From positions 1 through 26,415 of IMG/VR virus record IMGVR_UViG_3300037722_001361: DNA of 26,415 nt; one strand, 5' to 3'. The first letter of the stretch is position 1; every line of letters starts with the position of its first letter. Below the pieces are notes generated by a model. The model saw only the letters and a list, made by a program, of their open reading frames with translations, searched no databases and was not told the DNA's origin. Below, in pieces: positions 3,243-26,203 of this stretch. This DNA is from a virus (Duplodnaviria; Caudoviricetes). The position numbers were made by a program, and so were the translations under genes.

Positions 3243-5078
3243 TTATTTGCGCCTCACGTTGAAGCTCTTCTTGCAGTGCGGACAGGTGTTATTTCCAGCC
3301 TGCAGGGTGGAGATGACCAGGGGCCCCTTGCAGGACGGGCACGGGACAGTCTTCTCGTTGGCGTGATCGGGGGCAGGTTGCTGCGGGGACGCCTTCTCAA
3401 CTCGGCCGTCATGCTCCTGTGCTCTTTGGTTTATTGGCATGGTGTGCGCGCCCGCTGGGACGGGTTCGGTCGGCCTTGCGGCAGGAACTTCCGTCGGGGT
3501 TGTGGCCCTGGAAGCCGGCATGGGCTGTTCGGAAACCTGCGCGACTGGCGAACCCACCTCACGTACTACGCTCTCTCGGCCTTGGGACTTTTGAACGGCG
3601 AGTGTCTCTCGATATTCAACAGCCTCCGCAACCATCGTCCATTTAACACTGATTCCCATTTCATCGACGACGTTCTTGATGTCAGTAATCCTCGTCCTAA
3701 AGAATTCCTTTCGTGGGTTGACGAGATTAACCTGATTGTCCCTGAACAAGTTGTGGAGTCGTGACTCCAGTGCGGGGGCGTCTTCGCTGAACATCATTGC
3801 ATGGATGTCAAACTCGAATGGGACACTGGCGTCGCCCAGTTCGCGAACTCGATCACTTGGTTCGAGCCGGCGCGTCAGCCCGATCTTGAAGACGTCGTCG
3901 CCAAAAGACCCCACGTTGGAGATGATATAGACGTGCCCTTGCTTGGTCTGTTGGGCCATTGAAATCGCGCGTTGATTCTTTTCCTCGGCCGCTTTCAGTT
4001 TCTGTTCCAGTTCTTCCAGTCGGCGTTGATACTCGGCTCGCTGCTCTTCGCTGGCGCTCTGGATATCCTGCTTCGCCTGCTCCATGGCCTGCTGGAGGAG
4101 CTTTTCTTCCTTTTCCGCTTCCTTGATGGCCTTTTCATACTCTTTGCGTGCGCGCTCTTCTTCGCGCATTTGTTCTTTTATCTGTCGCTGCTCCTCTTGT
4201 TCCTGGTTGCGAAGTTCGTTGGCGGCAACCGTCCACCGCAGTTCCGATCGTCGCGCCTCGAGGTACTGAGGTTGGATTCTGGCGTTTCGGAACGCTTCGC
4301 CGTTGTGGTTTACGAGACTAAAAGCATCTCTGACTTCCTGATCCAGCTTCCCAAAGTTGTCATGCTTTGCCCTCGACAGAATCGTATCGACCTTGCCGTT
4401 GAAGGCGTCCAGGATGAAATGAACAGCCGTTTCTTTGCGAAGTGCTTCCGCGTAGTCGCAGGCCGCGGCGAGACCGGACTTCACCATCTGTCGAGAATGC
4501 TCCCTTGCCGTCTTAAGCTCAAGCCCCGCTTCCTTGTGCGAGAAGTCCTCAGCAAGGTCGTCGATGAGACTTCGGTTTGGTACGAGGTACTCATCACCGT
4601 ACCCTTTGATGATGTTCTTCATCGCCTTGGCGGTTGCCTCGAGTTGCTTCGCCTCCCTGAGTGCGATCATCGCATCGCCGGCAACCTCGTTCGCACGTAC
4701 GTTCGCTTCTGCAACGATGCGCGACGCCTGCTGAGAAGCCGATCTCAGCGTATTGGCTTGCAGCTCTTTCGTTTCGCGAACCAAATCGGCAGCTTCTCGC
4801 CTCCTCTGCTGAACGTCAAGTTCTGCTTCCTCTCGAAGTCGCTGGATCTCTGTACTCGCATTCTCCTGAGCCTGTGTGATGTCGCGTCGTCGATCTTCTA
4901 CTTCACGATCGACTTCGAGAATCCCTTCGTAACGGGAGAGTTCGCGATTCTTCTCTGTGAGTTCACGGATGCGTAGAGTGCTTTCGGCTTTCGCCTTTTC
5001 TGATCTCTGCATCGTGAGCCAGAGAATCGCGCCGAGAATCCCTGAAATGATGAGGAGTAAGAGTGCGACTATGTACAT
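3243..5078 (-). CDS. DUF4041 plus T5orf172/MUG113 (GIY-YIG-like) domain protein with N-terminal TM helix, coiled coils and C-terminal CxxC-CxxC zinc ribbon; moron
   Basis: N-terminal hydrophobic MYIVALLLLIISGILGAILWL; motifs GHVYIISNVGSFGDDVFKIGLTRRLEP..RV.EL..ASVPFEFDIH and VNPRKEFF; C-terminal CPSC...CPHC; opposite strand and lower GC than the flanks. Start at ATG 5078 preferred over TTG 5138. Confidence 0.88.
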   Translation of the reverse strand: MYIVALLLLIISGILGAILWLTMQRSEKAKAESTLRIRELTEKNRELSRYEGILEVDREVEDRRRDITQAQENASTEIQRLREEAELDVQQRRREAADLVRETKELQANTLRSASQQASRIVAEANVRANEVAGDAMIALREAKQLEATAKAMKNIIKGYGDEYLVPNRSLIDDLAEDFSHKEAGLELKTAREHSRQMVKSGLAAACDYAEALRKETAVHFILDAFNGKVDTILSRAKHDNFGKLDQEVRDAFSLVNHNGEAFRNARIQPQYLEARRSELRWTVAANELRNQEQEEQRQIKEQMREEERARKEYEKAIKEAEKEEKLLQQAMEQAKQDIQSASEEQRAEYQRRLEELEQKLKAAEEKNQRAISMAQQTKQGHVYIISNVGSFGDDVFKIGLTRRLEPSDRVRELGDASVPFEFDIHAMMFSEDAPALESRLHNLFRDNQVNLVNPRKEFFRTRITDIKNVVDEMGISVKWTMVAEAVEYRETLAVQKSQGRESVVREVGSPVAQVSEQPMPASRATTPTEVPAARPTEPVPAGAHTMPINQRAQEHDGRVEKASPQQPAPDHANEKTVPCPSCKGPLVISTLQAGNNTCPHCKKSFNVRRK

Positions 5079-5166
5079 GGCGCTTTTGAGATGAAATGAG
5101 ACGGTTGGCGCAACGGCCCCGACATCGATAGGTATCAAATACCCACCCTACCTTCCGTACCGCACT

Positions 5167-16300: not shown

Positions 16301-17851
16301 ATGGCTTGGGAAAAAGTCGCCGCTGGCCAGAAGCTCAGGCAAACGCCGATCCATCACGCCGGCTACATCAACGACACGATCGATGTCGTCAATGCACACA
16401 AGGAAGGTCGGCTGCAGGGGCCCAGCAGTTCCCGTCAAGGCTCTCAATCCCGCGTTCAAGTCGAGGTTCGCAATCTGACGGGCGGCGACCTGGGGCGTGG
16501 CCAACTTGTCCAACTCGGGGCGCACCTGCTCACGGACGTCTCGGAAGAGCATCCGTGGTTCGAAGGCAATACGGTTGCCGATCCGGTCCGCAGCAGGTTC
16601 GCAATCCTCAACCGGCCCCTCAAGGCTGGCGAGATCGGACCAGCACAGATCGCCGGTGTCTGCCTGGCCTACATCTTTATCCTCGACACGGCTCACAAAC
16701 ACGCGGTGCCGTCGGACGGCGCTACCGTACTGGTTTCGAGCAAAGTAGGCCCGGTGGAACTCCTCATGCCGGCGCCCGGGCTGGGCCTGAGGCACGTGTG
16801 GGTCAAGCTCGATCACAAGGAGAACTACTGCTACCACGTGACCCTCGGCGCGGGCATCTCCGCCGGCGGCAGCGGCAGCGTGCTTCTGCCCGACAACACA
16901 ACGATCACGGCCGTCAACTGGTCCGCCGATACGGCGCTCTCGTCCGGCGACCGCTGCCTGTGCTTCAAAGACCTGGTCGACGACACCTACTGCCTCATCA
17001 AGACCGGCGGTCAGTCGCAGACGAAGATCTGGCATTCCGCAGCCAATGCCAACATCGCGGCCGGCGCCAGCGGCGGCGTCACGCTCTCGACGGGCGCAAT
17101 CGTCACGGCGACGAACTGGTCCAATGACGTCGACATCAACACCTCGGACAAGATTCACGTCTACCAGGACCCGTTCGATAGCCTCTATTACGCGATCAAG
17201 TCGGGCGGCGGCAGTGGCGTCCGTCGCTTCAAGGGCAACCTGTACACAAACCTCACCCACACGGATGCCACGGCCCAAGTTACGAACCTCGCGGCCCTGG
17301 ACGGGGCGGGCGGGCTTCCGGCAACGCCGTTGACCGTCGTGAATCTGTTCGACCTGGCCGGCGAGACCGGCGACGACGTGTTGTTGACGGAGGATTTATC
17401 GGGTGAAGGCACCCAGTACCTCTTGGAGCAGATCAAGCACAAGGCCATCGAAGACGTGATTGACGTAAAGACGGATGACGATTTTGACCCGACGAAGATC
17501 CAGCAGACCAAGCGAACGATTCTGGGCGTGGCCGGCATGGACGACGCCGAGGATGAGGATGTCTTGGAATGGAGCACGATCAATCTCGTTCAGAACGTGG
17601 CGGTCGACAGCACCAGCGATCCCACGAAGCTCTACGAAACCTTCGTGATCGTTCCCGTCCTGCCACGCACCACCTACAGCCCGAGCAACAGCGACATCGT
17701 CGACCTGGAGGATGTCGAGGTCGATACCGACGTCAAGACCGACAGCCCAGGCAACCCGACGAAGCTGCAGCAGACCAAGCGGACGATCAAGTCGTTCCCC
17801 AAGCCCGACGACTCGGCCGACAGCGACATCATCGGCATCGAGGAGTGCTGA
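16301..17851 (+). CDS. Tail spike/fibre-like protein with two sets of internal repeats
   Basis: 516 aa; duplicated ~60-aa unit (TAVNWS/TATNWS...IKTGG/IKSGG) and three acidic ~45-aa units containing PTK(I/L). Confidence 0.6.
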   Translation: MAWEKVAAGQKLRQTPIHHAGYINDTIDVVNAHKEGRLQGPSSSRQGSQSRVQVEVRNLTGGDLGRGQLVQLGAHLLTDVSEEHPWFEGNTVADPVRSRFAILNRPLKAGEIGPAQIAGVCLAYIFILDTAHKHAVPSDGATVLVSSKVGPVELLMPAPGLGLRHVWVKLDHKENYCYHVTLGAGISAGGSGSVLLPDNTTITAVNWSADTALSSGDRCLCFKDLVDDTYCLIKTGGQSQTKIWHSAANANIAAGASGGVTLSTGAIVTATNWSNDVDINTSDKIHVYQDPFDSLYYAIKSGGGSGVRRFKGNLYTNLTHTDATAQVTNLAALDGAGGLPATPLTVVNLFDLAGETGDDVLLTEDLSGEGTQYLLEQIKHKAIEDVIDVKTDDDFDPTKIQQTKRTILGVAGMDDAEDEDVLEWSTINLVQNVAVDSTSDPTKLYETFVIVPVLPRTTYSPSNSDIVDLEDVEVDTDVKTDSPGNPTKLQQTKRTIKSFPKPDDSADSDIIGIEEC

Positions 17852-18498
17852 TGGTCGCCCTCAAACGCAAGGCCAACACAAGCAAGCTACTCCGCAAGAC
17901 GACCAGCCCGGCTCTGACCACCGATCCCAAGTGCTGCTGCGGACCATTCGTCGCCATCAACGTCTGCAACTTCAACAAGTGGTCCGACGAGATCCACGAC
18001 GCGGTGCTCAACGGCAACATGCTCACCCGGCCGACCGTGCATGCCGACGGCGCCTGCGGCGGCGGCTATTACGCCAACATCGATCCGCTGCCAGCCTACT
18101 GCGCCCTCCAAACCACCGGCGGCGTCAAGTTCCGCTGCTGCGGCACCCAGGTCGGCGGCACATGCGGCGGCACGACGTACCCATCGGGCGTCTATCCGGC
18201 GACCGGCGCCGCGAACGAAGACCCATGCGCCTCGCCCAAGTCATCGAATACGCAGAACTGCGGCACGCTTGGCGATTGCAGCGGCGACCTGATCACGCAG
18301 TCCTTCCCATCGAGCTACCTGGTCACCGGCACGAACACACTCACCGTCAATCGAACCGGCGCGACGCGCTCAGCAGGCAGCTATGGCGTCGTCGAGGTCG
18401 CCAAGCTCGAGCTCGTCTCGGGCACCTGGCGCATCAACACGTTCCTGGCCACCGGCACCTACGGCTCCGGCAACCTCACCCTGACCTGGAGCCTATAG
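17851..18498 (+). CDS. Cys-rich putative tail/receptor-binding protein (215 aa)
   Basis: TGATG coupling and AGGAG SD give start 17851 (MVALKRKANTSKLLRK...KCCCGP); Gly/Thr/Cys-rich. Confidence 0.7.
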   Translation: MVALKRKANTSKLLRKTTSPALTTDPKCCCGPFVAINVCNFNKWSDEIHDAVLNGNMLTRPTVHADGACGGGYYANIDPLPAYCALQTTGGVKFRCCGTQVGGTCGGTTYPSGVYPATGAANEDPCASPKSSNTQNCGTLGDCSGDLITQSFPSSYLVTGTNTLTVNRTGATRSAGSYGVVEVAKLELVSGTWRINTFLATGTYGSGNLTLTWSL

Positions 18499-18501
18499 AT
18501 A

Positions 18502-18894
18502 ATGTCAACATCCTGGCAGTGGTTCCCCGACACCAAGACCGCCATCTGCTGCTACTGCGGCTTTAGCGCCACCTACGCTAGCGACTTCCCCGGCCACATC
18601 GATCACGACTGCGATCCGGCTCGGCATCCACCGATCGCCACACCCCAGGGCCTGCCCGTCGGCCGCAGCCCGCGCCCGGAAAACCTCTCGCACACTCCGC
18701 TCGACCGACTCCTGGCCTGCATCCACCGCGGCCCCGAGCTGCGCCAAGAACCCTGCATAACCTGCCCCTCCGGCACCCGCATCAAGATCTTCGCCTGCGC
18801 AATCCATGGCGACTGCCAACTGGACGATAAGATCCCAGGCCTGAAGTCGTGTTGCGTATGCGCTGAGCGCACGCCCACTCCGGTTGGACAGTAA
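18502..18894 (+). CDS. Cys/His-rich hypothetical phage protein (130 aa)
   Basis: CCYC, CIHRG, CITC, CAIHGDC and CCVC motifs; starts 3 nt after the upstream stop. Confidence 0.75.
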   Translation: MSTSWQWFPDTKTAICCYCGFSATYASDFPGHIDHDCDPARHPPIATPQGLPVGRSPRPENLSHTPLDRLLACIHRGPELRQEPCITCPSGTRIKIFACAIHGDCQLDDKIPGLKSCCVCAERTPTPVGQ

Positions 18895-18908
18895 CGACGG
18901 GGCGTCAG

Positions 18909-19202
18909 CTACCAGCGCCGTCGACCTCTGCGCCGCGTTGGTCTTCGCCCATCTGGGTGCCACCCTCGTCTGCGCCGACGTGAAGGCGCTTGGCCGCCGA
19001 AACTGGAAGCCAGTACACCCAACACGATAAACGGAAGAAGCAAACATGTCCGTAGGATGGCCCCGATTCCGCGCAGGGCGATCCATATCAAGTCCCTCAC
19101 CAAAACGCCGGCGGCAACGTCGAAGATCCGGCCGCCCAACAGCATCCGGCCTAGGAAGAATAGCATCACCAAAGGCATGAGCATGGCAACGATCACTTCC
19201 AT
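18909..19202 (-). CDS. Small membrane protein with ~2 TM segments and an Arg-rich C-terminal tail
   Basis: Hydrophobic N-terminal and central segments; tail RRRRRGWHPDGRRPTRRRGRRRW; GAGGA SD. Confidence 0.7.
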   Translation of the reverse strand: MEVIVAMLMPLVMLFFLGRMLLGGRIFDVAAGVLVRDLIWIALRGIGAILRTCLLLPFIVLGVLASSFGGQAPSRRRRRGWHPDGRRPTRRRGRRRW

Positions 19203-19242
19203 TTGTCATTTCCTCAGCGTCTTTGTGTGAAGGGCAGTGAAG

Positions 19243-19279
19243 AACCGCGCCGACGACACGCGACGCCATCGGCGCGGCT
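19243..19279 (-). terminator. GC-rich hairpin, terminator- or attenuator-like
   Basis: GCCGCGCCGAUGGC...GUCGUCGGCGCGGU stem whose G-U pairs only form on the - strand, followed by UCUUCAC (weak U tract). Confidence 0.45.
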
Positions 19280-19305
19280 TAGTTGAGCCTCTCGGGCACG
19301 TCGGT

Positions 19306-19467
19306 TTAGCCGAAAATCCAGCGAAGCACCCTCGACTTCCGCGGCCTTTGCCCGTTCCGGTTCAAGCGGAAGTTTCGGCAGAAGAACGAGTAGCACCGCT
19401 TGCACAAAATCCGGCCGCCCCACACGCGGATGCGCCGAATTCTCCGACCACATGACGAACACTTCAT
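19306..19467 (-). CDS. Tiny basic zinc-finger protein (53 aa, MKCSSCGRR...LCKRC)
   Basis: GGAGGT SD upstream of ATG 19467; CxxC-x15-CxxC; very Arg-rich. Confidence 0.65.
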   Translation of the reverse strand: MKCSSCGRRIRRIRVWGGRILCKRCYSFFCRNFRLNRNGQRPRKSRVLRWIFG

Positions 19468-19559
19468 GGAACACCTCCGGTGAAGTTGAAAGGGAACCGG
19501 CGGGTGTGCGTCCTTTCCCTGCCGGTCGTGGATCAGTTGCCGGCTCCGCCGACAGACAA

Positions 19560-20258
19560 CTAGGCCGAGCGAATGTCCCGAGCTTGAAGTCCCTTCGGAA
19601 CGTCGACGACCACGAAACTCACGCGGTCGCCAACGCGGAACCTGAAGCCCGTCGGAGCATGGCTGACGTGGCACCACACCGTCTGGCCGAGAACCTCATC
19701 GTTCGCGAACGCGAACCCGCGCCCCTCGGCCACGTAGCTGATCCGCCCGAAGTGCCGGGCGAGATCGGTCACGTGTAGCCGCGCGGTGTTGTTCCCACCC
19801 GTGATCTTCTCGTGGTGCACCGACCGAATCGTGGTCCCCCTCGCCTTCGGGTGCTCCTCCTTGTTCGACCATGGCACATTCAACAGGTGCTTGAGGAGGT
19901 CCCTCTGCGAACGGTCGCACCAGGAGATCGAGAACAGGTGCTCCACGATCAGACTCGGCGGCAACAGGGGTAGCTCGATGCCACGGCCGGCATCCACGCA
20001 CCTCCCGTTGCCGTTCGCGTTGGGGGAAAACTCGATCGTATGATCGAACACCACGTGTCGGTTCGCCCCCAAGTACTCCACCGTCACGCTCTTCAGATTG
20101 TTGAACGTGCGAATGACCTGAAGGTCATGCAGCACGTTAGCGCGCTCGGCAGCAGACGAGAAGAGCCGCCGGTTCAACCGCCGGGCCACGAACTCCAGCG
20201 CGTGAACGGCCTTCTCCACCTGCTCACGAACGGCCTGTGGAACTTGGAAATCATGCAT
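19560..20258 (-). CDS. Cold-shock (OB-fold) domain protein with an N-terminal domain resembling bacterial HORMA (232 aa)
   Basis: GGAGGT SD before ATG 20258. C-terminal CSD motifs G.I....GRGFAFA, VWCHVS, GDRVSF, KGLQARDI. The N-terminal ~160 aa resemble the bacterial HORMA pattern by eye. Confidence 0.75.
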   Translation of the reverse strand: MHDFQVPQAVREQVEKAVHALEFVARRLNRRLFSSAAERANVLHDLQVIRTFNNLKSVTVEYLGANRHVVFDHTIEFSPNANGNGRCVDAGRGIELPLLPPSLIVEHLFSISWCDRSQRDLLKHLLNVPWSNKEEHPKARGTTIRSVHHEKITGGNNTARLHVTDLARHFGRISYVAEGRGFAFANDEVLGQTVWCHVSHAPTGFRFRVGDRVSFVVVDVPKGLQARDIRSA

Positions 20259-20356
20259 CAAAGCACCTCCATCATTTGTTCGCCGCTCCCGTTCCATAGG
20301 AGGCGGCGCAACAGAAACAGAATGGGCAAATCTTCCTGATGCCCCGAACAAAACCT

Positions 20357-20393
20357 GGAGGCGGGCGGCACCAGGAGGGGTGCCGCCCGCTCC
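20357..20393 (-). terminator. Strong hairpin (perfect 12-bp inverted repeat), possible attenuator
   Basis: GCGGGCGGCACC (20361-20372) / GGTGCCGCCCGC (20379-20390) with a 6-nt loop; GGTTTTGTT follows shortly after on the - strand. Confidence 0.55.
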
Positions 20394-20403
20394 TTGCGAC
20401 CGG

Positions 20404-20583
20404 CTACACGCCAGCCAACTGTTTCCGCGCCCGGCGAGCCGACTTGCGCTCGTCCCGGAGCAACCTGCGACGGCAGCGCGCGTCGCAGAAGATCCGCCCC
20501 GCCGTGTCCTCCACTGCTTGGTGCCACCACAGGCGGCCACCGCAATTTGCACAGAGTTCCCTGCATTTGTTCGAGCGTCTCAT
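20404..20583 (-). CDS. Tiny TRASH/MYM-like zinc-finger protein (59 aa), absent from the ORF track
   Basis: GAGGA SD; MRRSNKCRELCANCGGRLWWHQAVEDTAGRIFCDARCRRRLLRDERKSARRARKQLAGV, with CxxC...FCxxxC signature. Confidence 0.65.
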   Translation of the reverse strand: MRRSNKCRELCANCGGRLWWHQAVEDTAGRIFCDARCRRRLLRDERKSARRARKQLAGV

Positions 20584-20939
20584 CTGGTGTCCTCATTTCG
20601 TTGTGACCGCTATTCAGTGGGCCGCGGCCGATTACCCGTTGCCATATCCGAGTAGTCAGCAAAGTTGGCTGAATCCGGCACCGTAGCTTCCAAAAAAACT
20701 GGCGATGACGGCGCGGCGCGAACCTGTGCGGCACTGAGGCCGGAAATTGCGGCGGAAGCGTTAGATGCGGCCCCACGCGATTGCCACCGGCCGAGCACAG
20801 AAGTTTTCTTTCAGCGGCCCGACTGGATCGCTAGAATGAAGTGCTGGTGGCGGTAGAAGGACTTCCGGCACACGCTGAGGGCTTAAACGTGCTGCCCAAA
20901 TCCGGCCAATAGGCTTTGCATTGCGCTCGGAGGTTCCCA

Positions 20940-21527
20940 ATGGGTCAAGCGGGTGACGAGGCGGGGGCGCGTTCCACACGGGCTCGCGAGTCAGATTTAC
21001 GGGCGGAGTACGCCAAGCAAGTCAACGAGCGATACCTCGTGCGGCTGAAAAACTTCGTTCGGGCGACGCTCAATTCGCGTATCCGCAGGCGGGAAGGAAC
21101 GAGTGATGTCGTTCAGGATGCCCTCAAGAGCTTTTTTGAGAGCAGCGCAGAGATCGATGATCCCGATGGACTTTGGCCGCGCCTCCGGCTTTTTGCAGAG
21201 CGAAAAGTTAAGAACGCTGCAAACAAACATAGGGCAGCAATGCGCGACGTCGGCCGCGAGGCCACAGTGTCAGCAACGGCACATTACGATTCAATGGATC
21301 CGCTGATGAACGCCATCGACCCCGCAAGCCAAGGGGCACCATTGGAGGCGCTGATCATCGCTGAAGAATTGACCCGTTTGACGGCCGACGAAATGGAGAT
21401 CGTGTCCATGCGTCGCGAGGGAGCTAACTTCAACGCGATCGGTGCAAAGCTGGGGTGTGACGAGAGCACCGTCAGAAGAAAGTGGAACCGCCTCCTGGCC
21501 CGTTGGGACGCCGAGACCGAGGACTGA
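20940..21527 (+). CDS. ECF sigma factor, Ser/Thr-kinase-associated type
   Basis: GGAGGT SD; region 2 IRRREGTSDVVQDALKSFF and RRAAMRDVGRE-like motif (HRAAMRDVGRE); region 4 HTH EGANFNAIGAKLGCDESTVRRKW; directly upstream of a kinase. Confidence 0.88.
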   Translation: MGQAGDEAGARSTRARESDLRAEYAKQVNERYLVRLKNFVRATLNSRIRRREGTSDVVQDALKSFFESSAEIDDPDGLWPRLRLFAERKVKNAANKHRAAMRDVGREATVSATAHYDSMDPLMNAIDPASQGAPLEALIIAEELTRLTADEMEIVSMRREGANFNAIGAKLGCDESTVRRKWNRLLARWDAETED

Positions 21528-21547
21528 CTTCACTGCAGGGTGCTCAA

Positions 21548-24500
21548 ATGAGCACGTCCGATGTGCGCCTGCGACAACAGGATCTGACGCCCACTGGTTC
21601 TCCGATCAGTGAGGCTGACTCGGATCATCGCGCCCATCGTATTGACTGCTTTGAAATCATCAAAGAGCTTGGTCGGGGTTCGTTCGGAGTCGTGTATTTG
21701 GCTCTTGAAGTCCAGCCCAACCGCCAGGTTGCCATCAAGGTACCGATTCTTCCCAGGGATCCGATCGCCCGGCGGGAACTCGCTGACAGGTTCCTGGACG
21801 AGGCGGGGAAAGCAGCAGCCTTTACCCATCACGGCATTGTCGAAATCTATAGGGTCGGGGTGACGTCGGGGTCGCCTCATTGGCCCGACGGGACGCCATT
21901 CGCTGTTATGCCGTATCTCGAAGGGGGGACTCTGCAAACGCTTCTGGACGAGTACAAAGACCGGGGAGAGACGCTTCCGTATCGTGAGACGGCGCGCATC
22001 TTGATGCAGGTCGCGGACGCCCTCCACACTGCTCACACGACGGGCCGCCTCATTCACCGGGATCTTAAGCCATCAAACATACTCCTCGACTCAGAACGAA
22101 CGCCGCGGGTGGCCGACCTTGGCCTAGCCATTCACAAGTCGCAACTGGCCACGGGTGCGAGCATCCTCGCCGCGGGCACACTTGCGTATATGGCCCCCGA
22201 GCAGCTCGCGGGGAGCACGGCGTTGGATCGCGCCGACATCTACAGTTTCGGCGTCATTCTTTATCGGATGTTGACCGGCGAGCTTCCGTTCGAGGAAACT
22301 CCTCAGCACTTGCTGATGGTCAAAATCATGCAAGATAATCCAGAGCCAGTCCGGCAACGAGCTCCATTCGTGCCGCGCTTGCTCGCGGACATTTGCGAAC
22401 AGTGCCTGCGGAAGGACCCCGCAGATCGTCCATCAACTGCAAGAGACCTCTTCAGTTCGCTCCAGAAATGGCTAGCTGACGACGCAATTCGCCCCGAGCC
22501 GTCGGGCTTGTTTGTGCCGAATTGGACGCTGGCACAAACGCCACCGAAGCAATTGCTGTGGCGTGGGAATTTTATCGGCCGCCGGGCGCAGCTCGCCGAT
22601 CTACAAGCGCGACTCGGGCCGAACCACATCGTGCCAATTGTGGGCCCCGTGAACTCAGGGAAGTCTGCGTTGATCGCGAAGTTCTTTTCGGAACCTGAAC
22701 GGCCAACCGAAGTGGCCGCGAGATTCATCGTCTCGTCTTCCTATCCGATTGGCCTAGGCTACATAGACCTCGCAGCACATAGCCCTCGCTCGTCGCCGGT
22801 TCTGCGTGGACTGTGCGTCATGCTCGGTGCCAAACTCGGAAGTATGCAGCTACTTGACGATCCCGAACGCGTAGACGAGCGTTGCCAGGCGTATTTGTTC
22901 GATGAGTTGATACCAGAGAGATTTGCCAGCTTAGTTCCACTTCTGGTATTCGACAATGCAGATGCTGTGCTGGCGCATCCCGCACATCGCGGCGATTTGG
23001 ATCGCGTATTGAAACTTTCTCACTTTGAGGCTGGCGGTGCCATCGTCGCGATCGCGAGCGGTTCAGTGCCCGACGGGGCGGGCAAGCGTCGGATCCAGGC
23101 TCCCATCGTCCTTGATGCTTACCTCACGTCCGACGAATGGATTGAGGCGAAGGCATTGTTCGTGGATGCTGGGGCAGATGAGCAAGTTGTTTCTGAGGGG
23201 ATTGCTATGTTGGGAGGCGAGCTCGCGCTGTTCACTCCCGGCGACGTTATTGAGGCAATACGAACGACCCAGCGGAAGTCTGAAAGCCAACAGTTTGGCG
23301 CGAGCGATGTGATTAGCGCTTTATGGGCTGCTTCCTCTATTTCGAAACAAGTTTCGGACCATCTTGAACGCATCGGGCTACCCCAGGGCGCGGTCGAACT
23401 TGCTGAGCTCAGTCAACGGGGCTGGCTTCTGGTTCTTGCGATCCTTGCCAGGGAAACACAACTGCGCCAGTCGATTAATGATGTCTTGCAACCTGAACTC
23501 GCATCCCTTCTGATCTCGAATGAGGTTCTAGTTGCGAACTCGGATGGAACCCTTTTGCTCTCGCAGACCATTGCAAATGTACTCCGTCTGGAACTCATTG
23601 GTCGGCTGGCTGGCCAGCAAGGAACAGTACTCGAAAGGTTGCTCGCCGATGGTGTGGATCGCCTACTTCTGATCGCAAGTCGCGGCGCGAACTCCGAGTC
23701 AGGGCCCATGGTGGGCGTCGAAGAGGCCGTGGCATGGCTGGAACGAGCGGCCCCGGGCGCCGTCGTTCTACGCGATCGATTGATCGGCTTTCTCGCTATC
23801 GAGGCCGTCGATGACGTTATCTACCCAGTCGCTCGGGATGACGCGGTGGGATTCGCGCAACGCTCCGTTCCGATCTCTTCGGGCGATGTCCTTCAGCCGT
23901 TGTTGGGTCAGCTCGCGGTGGCCACTCGCTTTGAACAGGACACAACTGCTATGTTCGCCCTTCTATCGTCGGCGATTCGCGTGGCGGACAACGCCGACTC
24001 ACTGTCGAGCACCGAGGTGCGACTCTTAGACATTGCAGGCTACGTAACCGCAAGACGATACAGAAGGTTTAGCGAAATAGTCGGCGTTCGGGAAATGCTC
24101 GTACCGCGACTCCGCGAGTTGCTTATTGACGAAACGTGCGACGACGTAGGCCTAGTGAAATGGAGTGCAAGCTGGTTTCTCAACTGCGCATGGTTGTGTG
24201 TCGCAATCGGCCAATTCCCTCAAGGACGCGATTATCTGCACTTTGCCAAACAAGCTATCCACCAGCTTCCATCCGCGTCGTCTTTACACAGCATGCTCGA
24301 TTCGATGTGGCTCAGGGCACGATGTGCCACGATCGAGGCACGTCTGGCGGCAGGCTCGGCCGATAGAAGGGCAGCGCTTCGAGCCGCTGCTGATGCCACG
24401 GCTGACGGCCTGACGACCTCGAACGGCCACCCAACCTGGGTTCGCAGGCATCTTTCTTCGGTCAGGCGCTTGCTCGATGAAGTCGGCGAGCGGCACAATC

Positions 24501-26203
24501 GACTCCAAATTACTCAGGCAGCTGAGGATCGTGTTGCAGACTCGCTTAGGCAATCCGATGATCGGTCCTGGCCACTAGCGGTGTCCACTAGCGCGTCGGC
24601 CCTCTGGCGCTTTTGTGCCGAACGCGAAGCCGACTCCGAGGCGCAGCACTCAGCAGCATGTCGCGCGCTCGCACTTCTGCGCTGTCGACAAGCCGAAGTG
24701 GATGCAGCATTGGCGCGCAAAGATGGGGAGGCGGCGCTTGAACTGGGGCGATCACTGGCCCTCGTTTCCTCGTGTAAGTGCTCCTCAAAGGACCTCCTTG
24801 CCCGCAAGGAGCTGCTCACGGAGGCGCAAAGGCTACTGGCGAGGACTGTAGATCTGGCGCCAACGGCTGAGGCTTGGCGCTTGTACCTGCGCGTGCTGGA
24901 TTTGGACGACCCGGACGCGGCTATGAGCGAATGGACATCTGAGGTAATGCGACCCCGAAGACCGATCCCGCCGGCGCTCCGAAGCGCGATCACGACCTAT
25001 CGTGGATGGGGGAAAGCACGTCGCACGGCTCAAGATGGAAGAACGGAGCTATGGTGCTTCCAGCGGGAATGGGAAGCTGCTTGGTCGTTCGAGCAGATAG
25101 CCCTATCGCAGTATGCCGTCGATTGGGAACGGTTGCCTCCTCGCGAGAGGCAAAAGGTTGTGAGGAAATACTACGCAGATCGCCTCAAGCGCTTAGACTG
25201 GCTTAGACGAGAATTCGAGCCCTTCCCTCAGGTTTTTGTCACTTTGGCGTGGACTGAATGCCAGTGTCAGCATCTCTTGGGCTTTCGTGTGAATGGCGGC
25301 TCCGGAACCAGTGATTATACCGCCGTGGCACGCATCTTTGCCGACGCTGACAAGGTGCTGCCAGACAACTGGCATATTGCCGCAGCTAGAGCGCGTTTCT
25401 TGAGGTATGTGTGGAATCACGATGAGGCAATCGCAATGTATAGGAACGCCATTGCGATGGCGCCTCGCGCTGGTGAGCGTCGTAGATTAAGTATCCAATT
25501 CGCAGAGGTGATTTTGACCAAGATCCGGCATTTGGATGATAGCCCCCGATCAGCCGAGGACGTGTCGCTTTTGCGAGAGGCTTGGGATTGCCTTCAGGGC
25601 CTGGAAGCCTTTGTAGGCGACGCTCGAAGCGCGTCGATGTTGCGCGATCGCGTCGCTTTCGAGCTCGGCTACCGGATCGACTGGAACGAACTCGACCACG
25701 CATATGCACTCGTGATGGAGGGAGATGACTACGTGCAATCTGTGGTGAAGAACGGTCCAGCGATACGAAGCCAATCTCCCGAGAGGGCTGAGCGACTGGC
25801 AGAAGCCGTCCAGATGCATTTTACGGATGTTGATATTCTACGCAGTTTCGGCAGCTTGTTGCTGCGCCGGGCGGAGCGATGTGACAATGTCGAGGAATCG
25901 ATGCGCTATGCGAGGATGGCGTATACGTCGTATACAGCTTGCCGCGTACTTGAAGAAGCATGGTGGAAAAAGGACAAAGAGAGGCCCACTACTCGCTTTC
26001 AGCGCGCGCGATGCATCCTAGTAGCTGCCGAACGGTCAAGGCGTGTTTCTCCATTTGAGATCGACCTGGAGGGGAAACCGAATAATCTCCGTTACGCGCA
26101 AAGCCTCTTCAACGGGGTGGCGAACCGGTCCGTCGGCGCCTTCAGTCGGATGGCAAGTTCAATGACCGGCGCGGCCGCCCGGCTCGAAAACGTCCTTACG
26201 TAG
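21548..26203 (+). CDS. Hanks-type Ser/Thr kinase fused to a STAND-like P-loop NTPase and a long helical/TPR-like region (1551 aa)
   Basis: Kinase motifs LGRGSFGVVY, VAIK, HRDLKPSN, DLG, GTLAYMAPE, DIYSFG; NTPase motifs FIGRRAQL, Walker A GPVNSGKS, Walker B LLVFDNAD; ~1000 aa Ala/Leu/Arg-rich helical tail; no clear TM helix. Confidence 0.88.
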   Translation: MSTSDVRLRQQDLTPTGSPISEADSDHRAHRIDCFEIIKELGRGSFGVVYLALEVQPNRQVAIKVPILPRDPIARRELADRFLDEAGKAAAFTHHGIVEIYRVGVTSGSPHWPDGTPFAVMPYLEGGTLQTLLDEYKDRGETLPYRETARILMQVADALHTAHTTGRLIHRDLKPSNILLDSERTPRVADLGLAIHKSQLATGASILAAGTLAYMAPEQLAGSTALDRADIYSFGVILYRMLTGELPFEETPQHLLMVKIMQDNPEPVRQRAPFVPRLLADICEQCLRKDPADRPSTARDLFSSLQKWLADDAIRPEPSGLFVPNWTLAQTPPKQLLWRGNFIGRRAQLADLQARLGPNHIVPIVGPVNSGKSALIAKFFSEPERPTEVAARFIVSSSYPIGLGYIDLAAHSPRSSPVLRGLCVMLGAKLGSMQLLDDPERVDERCQAYLFDELIPERFASLVPLLVFDNADAVLAHPAHRGDLDRVLKLSHFEAGGAIVAIASGSVPDGAGKRRIQAPIVLDAYLTSDEWIEAKALFVDAGADEQVVSEGIAMLGGELALFTPGDVIEAIRTTQRKSESQQFGASDVISALWAASSISKQVSDHLERIGLPQGAVELAELSQRGWLLVLAILARETQLRQSINDVLQPELASLLISNEVLVANSDGTLLLSQTIANVLRLELIGRLAGQQGTVLERLLADGVDRLLLIASRGANSESGPMVGVEEAVAWLERAAPGAVVLRDRLIGFLAIEAVDDVIYPVARDDAVGFAQRSVPISSGDVLQPLLGQLAVATRFEQDTTAMFALLSSAIRVADNADSLSSTEVRLLDIAGYVTARRYRRFSEIVGVREMLVPRLRELLIDETCDDVGLVKWSASWFLNCAWLCVAIGQFPQGRDYLHFAKQAIHQLPSASSLHSMLDSMWLRARCATIEARLAAGSADRRAALRAAADATADGLTTSNGHPTWVRRHLSSVRRLLDEVGERHNRLQITQAAEDRVADSLRQSDDRSWPLAVSTSASALWRFCAEREADSEAQHSAACRALALLRCRQAEVDAALARKDGEAALELGRSLALVSSCKCSSKDLLARKELLTEAQRLLARTVDLAPTAEAWRLYLRVLDLDDPDAAMSEWTSEVMRPRRPIPPALRSAITTYRGWGKARRTAQDGRTELWCFQREWEAAWSFEQIALSQYAVDWERLPPRERQKVVRKYYADRLKRLDWLRREFEPFPQVFVTLAWTECQCQHLLGFRVNGGSGTSDYTAVARIFADADKVLPDNWHIAAARARFLRYVWNHDEAIAMYRNAIAMAPRAGERRRLSIQFAEVILTKIRHLDDSPRSAEDVSLLREAWDCLQGLEAFVGDARSASMLRDRVAFELGYRIDWNELDHAYALVMEGDDYVQSVVKNGPAIRSQSPERAERLAEAVQMHFTDVDILRSFGSLLLRRAERCDNVEESMRYARMAYTSYTACRVLEEAWWKKDKERPTTRFQRARCILVAAERSRRVSPFEIDLEGKPNNLRYAQSLFNGVANRSVGAFSRMASSMTGAAARLENVLT

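Follow-up and report, generated by a model that had tools for sequence, protein, structure and literature searches.

STAND receptors of the Avs and bNACHT kinds carry an N-terminal enzyme, a STAND NTPase and a long helical C-terminal region, with no membrane segment. Bacterial HORMA proteins, said to have been first named by Burroughs et al. in 2015, have been described only as CD-NTase regulators reset by TRIP13, at least in the portions of the literature available to us. Kinase-associated extracytoplasmic function (ECF) sigma factors form groups ECF43, 59-62, 217, 267 and 283 in the accessible part of PMC7826278, and excerpts of PMC8999054 and PMC13147305 give a motif rule in which DAED is replaced and position 3 is Ser or Thr. 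Here we analyse a single virus record of 26415 bases (IMG/VR record IMGVR_UViG_3300037722_001361; the whole of it is hereafter the window), in which an ECF sigma factor gene and a kinase-STAND gene stand head to head with a four-gene cluster. The new element in this locus is the central protein of that cluster, a HORMA domain joined to a cold-shock domain (HORMA-CSD), rather than the sigma-kinase pair.

The HORMA-CSD protein and its relatives

An AlphaFold2 model of HORMA-CSD, built from a 128-row alignment, reached pLDDT 95.1 and pTM 0.89, and on comparison with 48161 chains its six best structural matches were all HORMA proteins: Pseudomonas aeruginosa HORMA2 (6p8r; Z 14.4, rmsd 3.9, 146 aligned, residues 2-165), Mad2 (Z 12.8), Rev7 (12.1), Escherichia coli HORMA (12.1), HORMAD1 (11.5) and HTP-2 (11.1). 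The predicted domain consists of helices and a three-stranded sheet core, with a complete C-terminal safety belt and a terminal hairpin; full-length HORMA chains align through the belt region, and the belt-less chain 6p8o aligns over residues 6-130 only. The N-terminal strand is absent from the model, which would fit the closed state as set out in the available part of 10.1101/694695, and belt residues G141, S146, H148 and G155 are conserved in the family. Residues 166-232 match both Pfam CSD and the structure of CspB (Z 10.9, rmsd 1.4, 63 aligned), forming an OB barrel that keeps the RNP1 and RNP2 aromatics, with F/Y182 in 93%, F184 in 97%, an aromatic residue at 195 in 98% and H197 in 73% of the rows that have a residue there. 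In the model the CSD starts straight after the final safety-belt strand. Judged by this model, the protein is a true HORMA-cold-shock-domain fusion.

Sequence comparisons give a fainter picture of the HORMA part. The window protein itself matches no HORMA sequence model; Pfam bacHORMA_1 is matched by 14 of the 128 aligned members (best 1.6e-9), and the PADLOC HORMA models match one to five members each, weakly. Searches of PDB sequences with alignments A2, A3 and A4 reached no HORMA chain, the profile of a basal clade (A9) matched E. coli MS115-1 HORMA (6p8v_H) at E 0.0071, and an Atlas search with the HORMA part returned no usable match. Only 6/128 members carry, with at least three residues in register, the Ser/Thr ladder on which TRIP13 takes hold, and the N-terminus of the window protein has none; 11/128 members have an N-terminal membrane anchor.

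A single-sequence search with the 232-amino-acid protein retrieved 11 proteins including itself from 682 candidates, and a 17-row profile retrieved 145 at E values up to 1e-10 from 1.84 billion representatives, about 110 of which span both HORMA and CSD. As far as sequence searches tell, the family is rare in genomes: besides the central genome it was found in 4/400 genomes of the order and in 0/400 of the phylum (six candidates scored per genome), and no relative was seen in the viral contigs, annotated phages or plasmids searched. A Pfam bacHORMA_1 scan of 301 genomes gave no match and is uninformative, its positive control having likewise gone unmatched. A quick tree of 119 rows, from which 11 fragments were left out and for which the careful search is unfinished, grouped the nine rows of the window clade (SH-aLRT 99) and, separately, the CRISPR-type rows together with L008 (90), both groups lying within one wider branch (96).

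Apart from the window, the analysis drew on 11 distinct loci, counting L005 and L009, which are the same locus, once and excluding L007, a plain CSD. Seven are CRISPR-linked, mostly to type III systems, and one more has NYN and PARP-like genes, making eight of the 11 defence neighbourhoods. L004, L005/L009 and L011 are type III-D, with a CARF-HEPN gene upstream and Cas2, then Cas1 and/or reverse transcriptase (RT), downstream; L004 and L005/L009 also have Cas6 and a ZnF-CSD-CSD gene upstream, and the HORMA-CSD copy of L011 is truncated. Two further loci, L010 and L018, belong to type III-B and carry Cas2-Cas1-RT; a Cas2 gene is assigned to L006 from its resemblance to L005, and L019 shows CRISPR-like repeats only. 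In the planctomycete loci of this clade (L004:6432-10618, L009:8803-13638, L010:8938-13529, L018:8787-12875) HORMA-CSD often has an N-terminal membrane anchor and a ZnF-CSD-CSD partner; L008 also carries such a partner, but its contig ends. HORMA-CSD beside Cas2-Cas1-RT is a candidate new CRISPR ancillary module, a connection that formed no part of the original prediction for this locus. Outside the CRISPR loci, L003:3657-12570 encodes a probable sensor and an NtrC-like regulator followed by OB/CSD, HORMA-CSD, NYN-domain, Cys/His-rich and PARP-like genes, and at L020:5698-10223 an OB/CSD-like gene and a divergent HORMA-CSD gene face a gene for a 1028-amino-acid protein with no Pfam, NCBIfam or PADLOC match. 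Separately, at L021:2388-4112 a CARF-AAA-HTH regulator (RtcR/PspF-like) lies directly 5' of Cas10 in a HORMA-CSD-bearing type III-D locus.

Neither a CD-NTase nor a TRIP13 model was matched among 83 flanking open reading frames (ORFs; best five families per protein), which were drawn mostly from 124 listed, with probable shadow frames left out. A Walker A scan of all 124 picked out one unrelated frame; the search for TRIP13 covered these flanks rather than whole host genomes.

The six-gene cassette and its setting

The plus strand of the window carries terminase, portal, S49 protease, head-tail and tape-measure genes, and the last tail-region gene directly precedes the cassette (18909-26203), the features of which are as follows.

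18909-19202, minus strand: 2-TM protein, 97 amino acids, with two hydrophobic segments and an Arg-rich tail
19306-19467, minus strand: ZnF2, a basic Cys-rich protein of 53 amino acids
19560-20258, minus strand: HORMA-CSD, 232 amino acids
19560-19763, minus strand: cold-shock domain, residues 166-232 of HORMA-CSD (Pfam CSD and CspB structural match)
19764-20258, minus strand: HORMA domain, residues 1-165 of HORMA-CSD (AlphaFold2 model and structural matches)
20361-20390, minus strand: perfect 12-bp hairpin directly 3' of the ZnF1 stop codon
20404-20583, minus strand: ZnF1, a four-Cys zinc-finger-like protein of 59 amino acids, first gene of the cluster
20584-20939: divergent intergenic region, 356 bp
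20940-21527, plus strand: ECF sigma factor of planctomycete type
21548-26203, plus strand: kinase-STAND gene, 1551 amino acids
21548-22441, plus strand: Hanks-type Ser/Thr kinase domain, residues 35-298 (Pkinase, E 6.5e-42)
22571-23827, plus strand: STAND-type P-loop NTPase and following helical part, about residues 342-760 (motifs and Atlas feature matches)
23828-26203, plus strand: orphan helix-rich C-terminal region, the presumed sensor, with no family match

The four minus-strand genes each have a purine-rich ribosome-binding site. The junction of phage and cassette is not an assembly artefact, because one contig of the likely source run covers 17963-20226 with zero differences from the window, phage and cassette pieces are of mostly similar depth in that run (about 7-8), and a second sample contains identical pieces from both at a depth of about 3; a chimeric junction was rejected accordingly. 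A planctomycete host is indicated by the sigma factor and by the relatives of HORMA-CSD. The original prediction, made from the letters alone, had listed these six genes and their domains, among them a HORMA-like-CSD fusion and a soluble kinase-STAND protein abutting the tail genes, and coordinates, Pfam and motif matches, hydropathy, the structural comparisons and the spanning contig bear it out on each of these points.

The small genes of the cluster recur at the same positions in the closest relatives. The L001 and L002 copies of ZnF1 share 56% and 53% identity with that of the window, and all four Cys are invariant; ZnF1 has no Pfam or NCBIfam match, no relative in the viral contigs searched, and a single weak profile match, in a different setting, among 401 genomes. 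ZnF2 is found in L001 (tblastn E 4.5e-5), and L002 keeps only a 3' remnant. The 2-TM protein, with hydropathy peaks of 2.35 and 2.33, has a homologue in L001 (31% identity, pairwise E 1e-6); its identification as a holin was rejected, the Pfam match being weak and below cut-off. A hairpin is predicted after ZnF1 in all three loci, with fold z scores of -2.84, -2.79 and +0.89, and is a candidate attenuator or processing site. The short leader shared by the three loci ahead of ZnF1 (window 20584-20625 on the minus strand, L001:790-831, L002:622-663) could fold into a stem whose loop opens with GGCC, at a fold energy not beyond that of shuffles. Elsewhere, a region resembling a mobile element and lacking HORMA (L024:2508-3824) encodes an ECF-like sigma factor, a small partner and a zinc finger like ZnF1.

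Two further observations concern the rest of the window. A PD-Lambda-1-like gene (3243-5138, minus strand; PADLOC E 2e-115; DUF4041 and T5orf172; G+C content at third codon positions (GC3) 0.625) sits antisense between the terminase and head genes, a second defence cargo site. Two Cys-rich orphan proteins of 215 and 130 amino acids close the tail module (17851-18894, plus strand) and have no family match in Pfam, PHROGs or NCBIfam. Att-like repeats were looked for and none was found.

The sensor pair and its link to the HORMA-CSD cluster

The kinase domain contains all catalytic motifs, with DLG replacing DFG, and the whole kinase-STAND protein has no transmembrane segment (highest 19-residue hydropathy 1.36). 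The NTPase is recognized by FIGR342, a Walker A motif GPVNSGKS366, a Walker B motif LLVFD465 and a degenerate GxP-like GGELAL556. Its Pfam match is weak (AAA_22, E 2.6e-4, below cut-off), and Atlas feature matches of 0.94-0.96 were mostly, among the ten listed, to AAA_16/AAA_22/NB-ARC/MalT-WHD/NPHP3_N clusters, two of the ten carrying no or few families. The helical repeat protein originally proposed survives as a C-terminal 850 residues rich in helix-forming residues, in which no Pfam TPR match and no internal repeat were detected.

The sigma factor scores 84 bits on a planctomycete ECF profile, with its sigma2.2 motif aligned, and its best NCBIfam match is TIGR02984 (E 2e-13, below cut-off). 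The motif is GTSD in place of DAED, which puts Ser55 at the position of the Thr phosphorylated in EcfP. The kinase gene begins 20 bp past the sigma stop codon and no anti-sigma gene is adjacent. In five planctomycete genomes a kinase lies within 1.5 kb of 14/26 PF07638 loci (L037, being half of the L028 gene, was dropped), and the sigma-kinase pair is therefore of an ordinary planctomycete kind.

An ECF sigma gene stands head to head with ZnF1-HORMA-CSD in three of the three close loci (window, L001 and L002), the HORMA-CSD proteins of which are only about 60% identical. L001 matches the window order exactly (divergent ECF, ZnF1, HORMA-CSD, ZnF2, 2-TM), and L002 has a divergent ECF fragment, ZnF1, HORMA-CSD, the ZnF2 remnant and a small hydrophobic gene. 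The L001 sigma matches PF07638 at E 2.4e-16, and the L002 sigma2 fragment scores 20 bits as against below 0 for four of five decoy frames, those listed; the background of PF07638 is 0-9 matches per genome in five genomes. All three sigmas have Ser or Thr inside the DAED-equivalent motif (QQSD and DTAE in the other two). A fourth ZnF1 (P0169) lies on a contig of 6711 bases, as does the HORMA-CSD protein P0005, and the two contigs are probably identical, though the association is circumstantial. We put the chance that the two halves are functionally linked at about even.

The reading that we tentatively favour, while rating the whole chain somewhat short of an even chance, is that an exchangeable kinase-sigma sensor drives a conserved HORMA-CSD operon, predicted to serve in defence as an RNA-binding switch gated by a peptide. 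The soluble kinase-STAND protein would respond to infection or to a comparable stress inside the cell; in the manner of STAND proteins, a cytoplasmic ligand would bind the orphan C-terminal region and the NTPase would oligomerise and activate the kinase. By analogy with EcfP and EcfK, the kinase would quite probably phosphorylate Ser55, after which the sigma factor would bind core polymerase, and the head-to-head layout suggests, with evenly balanced confidence, that it would transcribe ZnF1-HORMA-CSD-ZnF2-2TM. Closure of the belt around a peptide would, on the model, move or fix the RNA-binding domain, because the CSD directly follows the last belt strand. With no adjacent TRIP13 and no Ser/Thr ladder, such a switch would work in one direction only. 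The sensor pair would then be an exchangeable cassette, and HORMA-CSD the conserved unit, found again in type III CRISPR loci and next to NYN/PARP-like genes.

Several observations weigh against this chain. None of the three sigmas is closely related to another (no tblastn match; pairwise E 2.0 with L002), and that of L001 fits a different subfamily, TIGR02999, so that they probably read different promoters. No promoter common to the intergenic DNA of the window, L001 and L002 was seen, likeness there being confined to about 40 nt preceding ZnF1, and the 356-bp region has no sigma-70 consensus site. No kinase is seen in L001 or L002, both contigs ending inside the sigma gene; within the stretches covered, 9/11 other loci show no adjacent sigma, and about 100 family members are without known context. 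The PF07638 base rate is an undercount, the window's own sigma reaching only E 4e-4 on that model. Residues 330-1551 of the kinase-STAND protein retrieved no protein but their own from 8000 scored candidates of similar length, and residues 331-884 had no match in 401 genomes, a search run without a positive control. GC3 is 0.82 in HORMA-CSD, 0.78 in the zinc fingers and 0.79-0.87 in the phage core, as against 0.65 in the sigma and 0.62 in the kinase gene; such a contrast is as expected of a swapped module and fits a late unrelated insertion equally well.

Many of these points would be accommodated by two independent passengers, that is, an ordinary sigma-kinase pair with targets elsewhere and HORMA-CSD as a separate defence-island unit with another promoter, the layout reflecting a shared insertion spot. 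The frequency of nearby kinases at planctomycete ECF loci, the differing sigmas and GC3, the loci that show no adjacent sigma and the other low-GC3 cargo of the element (the PD-Lambda-1-like gene) all speak for it; we nonetheless hold it to be rather unlikely, since all three close loci have a sigma gene, oriented alike, beside HORMA-CSD, across only about 60% identity and at least two sigma subfamilies. The halves foreseen by the original prediction do co-occur as a divergent ECF gene in L001 and L002, but with sigmas that are not closely related and with kinase-STAND not shown elsewhere. Because the sigmas are not closely related, the kinase is unseen elsewhere, 9/11 loci differ and such pairs are common, the six genes proposed as one new system are not demonstrated as one fixed system; the part that is conserved and new is the HORMA-CSD cluster.

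It is improbable, to our mind, that kinase-STAND is instead an Avs-like abortive-infection protein in which phage sensing frees a toxic broad kinase, with the sigma factor and HORMA cluster accessory. The soluble effector-STAND-sensor layout with its orphan sensor and the prophage location beside other defence cargo are in keeping with such a protein, as is the match of the kinase domain to the PADLOC PD-T4-6 and MAD6 kinase models, but those matches span the generic kinase domain only, and the gene lies 20 bp behind a kinase-associated-type sigma with Ser at the phospho position. The PADLOC check advised with the original prediction yielded the PD-Lambda-1-like gene and generic kinase models, with no Avs model among the matches listed (25 of 33 families). 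Equally hard to credit is a non-immune stress regulon with HORMA-CSD as an RNA chaperone or antiterminator on hairpins like that of ZnF1 and its HORMA domain as a locked, non-switching scaffold, for although the CSD face is intact, a hairpin follows ZnF1 in 3/3 loci, TRIP13 and ladder are lacking and locked bacterial HORMAs exist (P. aeruginosa HORMA1, in the available part of 10.1101/694695), the hairpin is below shuffle level in only 2/3 loci, the known neighbourhoods are mostly CRISPR, NYN or PARP-like and the belt residues are conserved.

Comparison with known systems

Neither a HORMA-CSD fusion, nor HORMA in CRISPR loci, nor a STAND-kinase-sigma antiphage circuit turned up in our literature searches; the fusion is not described in the available portions of PMC7159879, PMC6601020, 10.1101/694695, PMC12657230 and PMC12839542, and Burroughs et al. 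(2015) with its supplements could list it. The relatives in CRISPR loci point to what is likely an undescribed RNA-level branch of bacterial immunity. A bolder reading, which we consider doubtful, would make HORMA-CSD a third way in which bacteria use the HORMA clamp, independent of TRIP13 and cyclase: capture of a foreign peptide would lead directly to RNA binding. The switch would be connected to different immune systems, being primed by a STAND-kinase-sigma transcription circuit here and, in the type III CRISPR sister clade, licensing RNA spacer capture by RT-Cas1-Cas2 or ancillary nucleases. As part of that same doubtful reading, the circuit here would parallel receptor-kinase-transcription-factor innate signalling. 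HORMA-CSD, a small soluble protein with a confident model, lends itself to direct tests of peptide selection and of RNA binding.

With the type III CBASS HORMA proteins (Cap7/Cap8; 6p8v/6u7b and 6p8r; 10.1101/694695, in the part available) HORMA-CSD shares the full-belt HORMA fold, the relation to bacHORMA_1 and defence neighbourhoods; it differs in the fused C-terminal CSD, in the scarcity of the ladder and in the N-terminal anchor of some members. Membership of CBASS was rejected, there being no CD-NTase or TRIP13 in the window or the 83 flanking ORFs and the ladder being mostly missing. The HORMA clamp fold serves cell-division checkpoints and bacterial antiviral signalling and is here joined to a nucleic-acid-binding domain, and about 110 such fusions with neither partner found adjacent widen its roles.

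The sensor pair resembles EcfP-PknT, EcfK-PknS (ECF43) and the planctomycete groups ECF59, 61, 62 and 217, as given in the accessible parts of PMC8999054, PMC13147305 and PMC7826278, in having a sigma gene followed by a kinase gene, no anti-sigma gene and DAED replaced with Ser at position 3; the window sigma keeps the acidic fourth position, as does QATE of EcfK. Whereas PknS is described there as a transmembrane receptor, the window kinase is soluble, with a STAND NTPase and an orphan sensor.

Its layout is that of Avs and bNACHT, except that here the enzyme is a kinase coupled to a sigma factor and no TPR family is detected. If the sigma link is true, this would be an example of a STAND receptor with gene induction rather than cell death as its output. 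Finally, in type III CRISPR systems with RT-linked Cas1-Cas2 the HORMA-CSD sister clade adjoins Cas2-Cas1-RT in both III-D and III-B, from which the window differs in having no cas genes; in those relatives a checkpoint-type switch is placed inside type III CRISPR adaptation regions.

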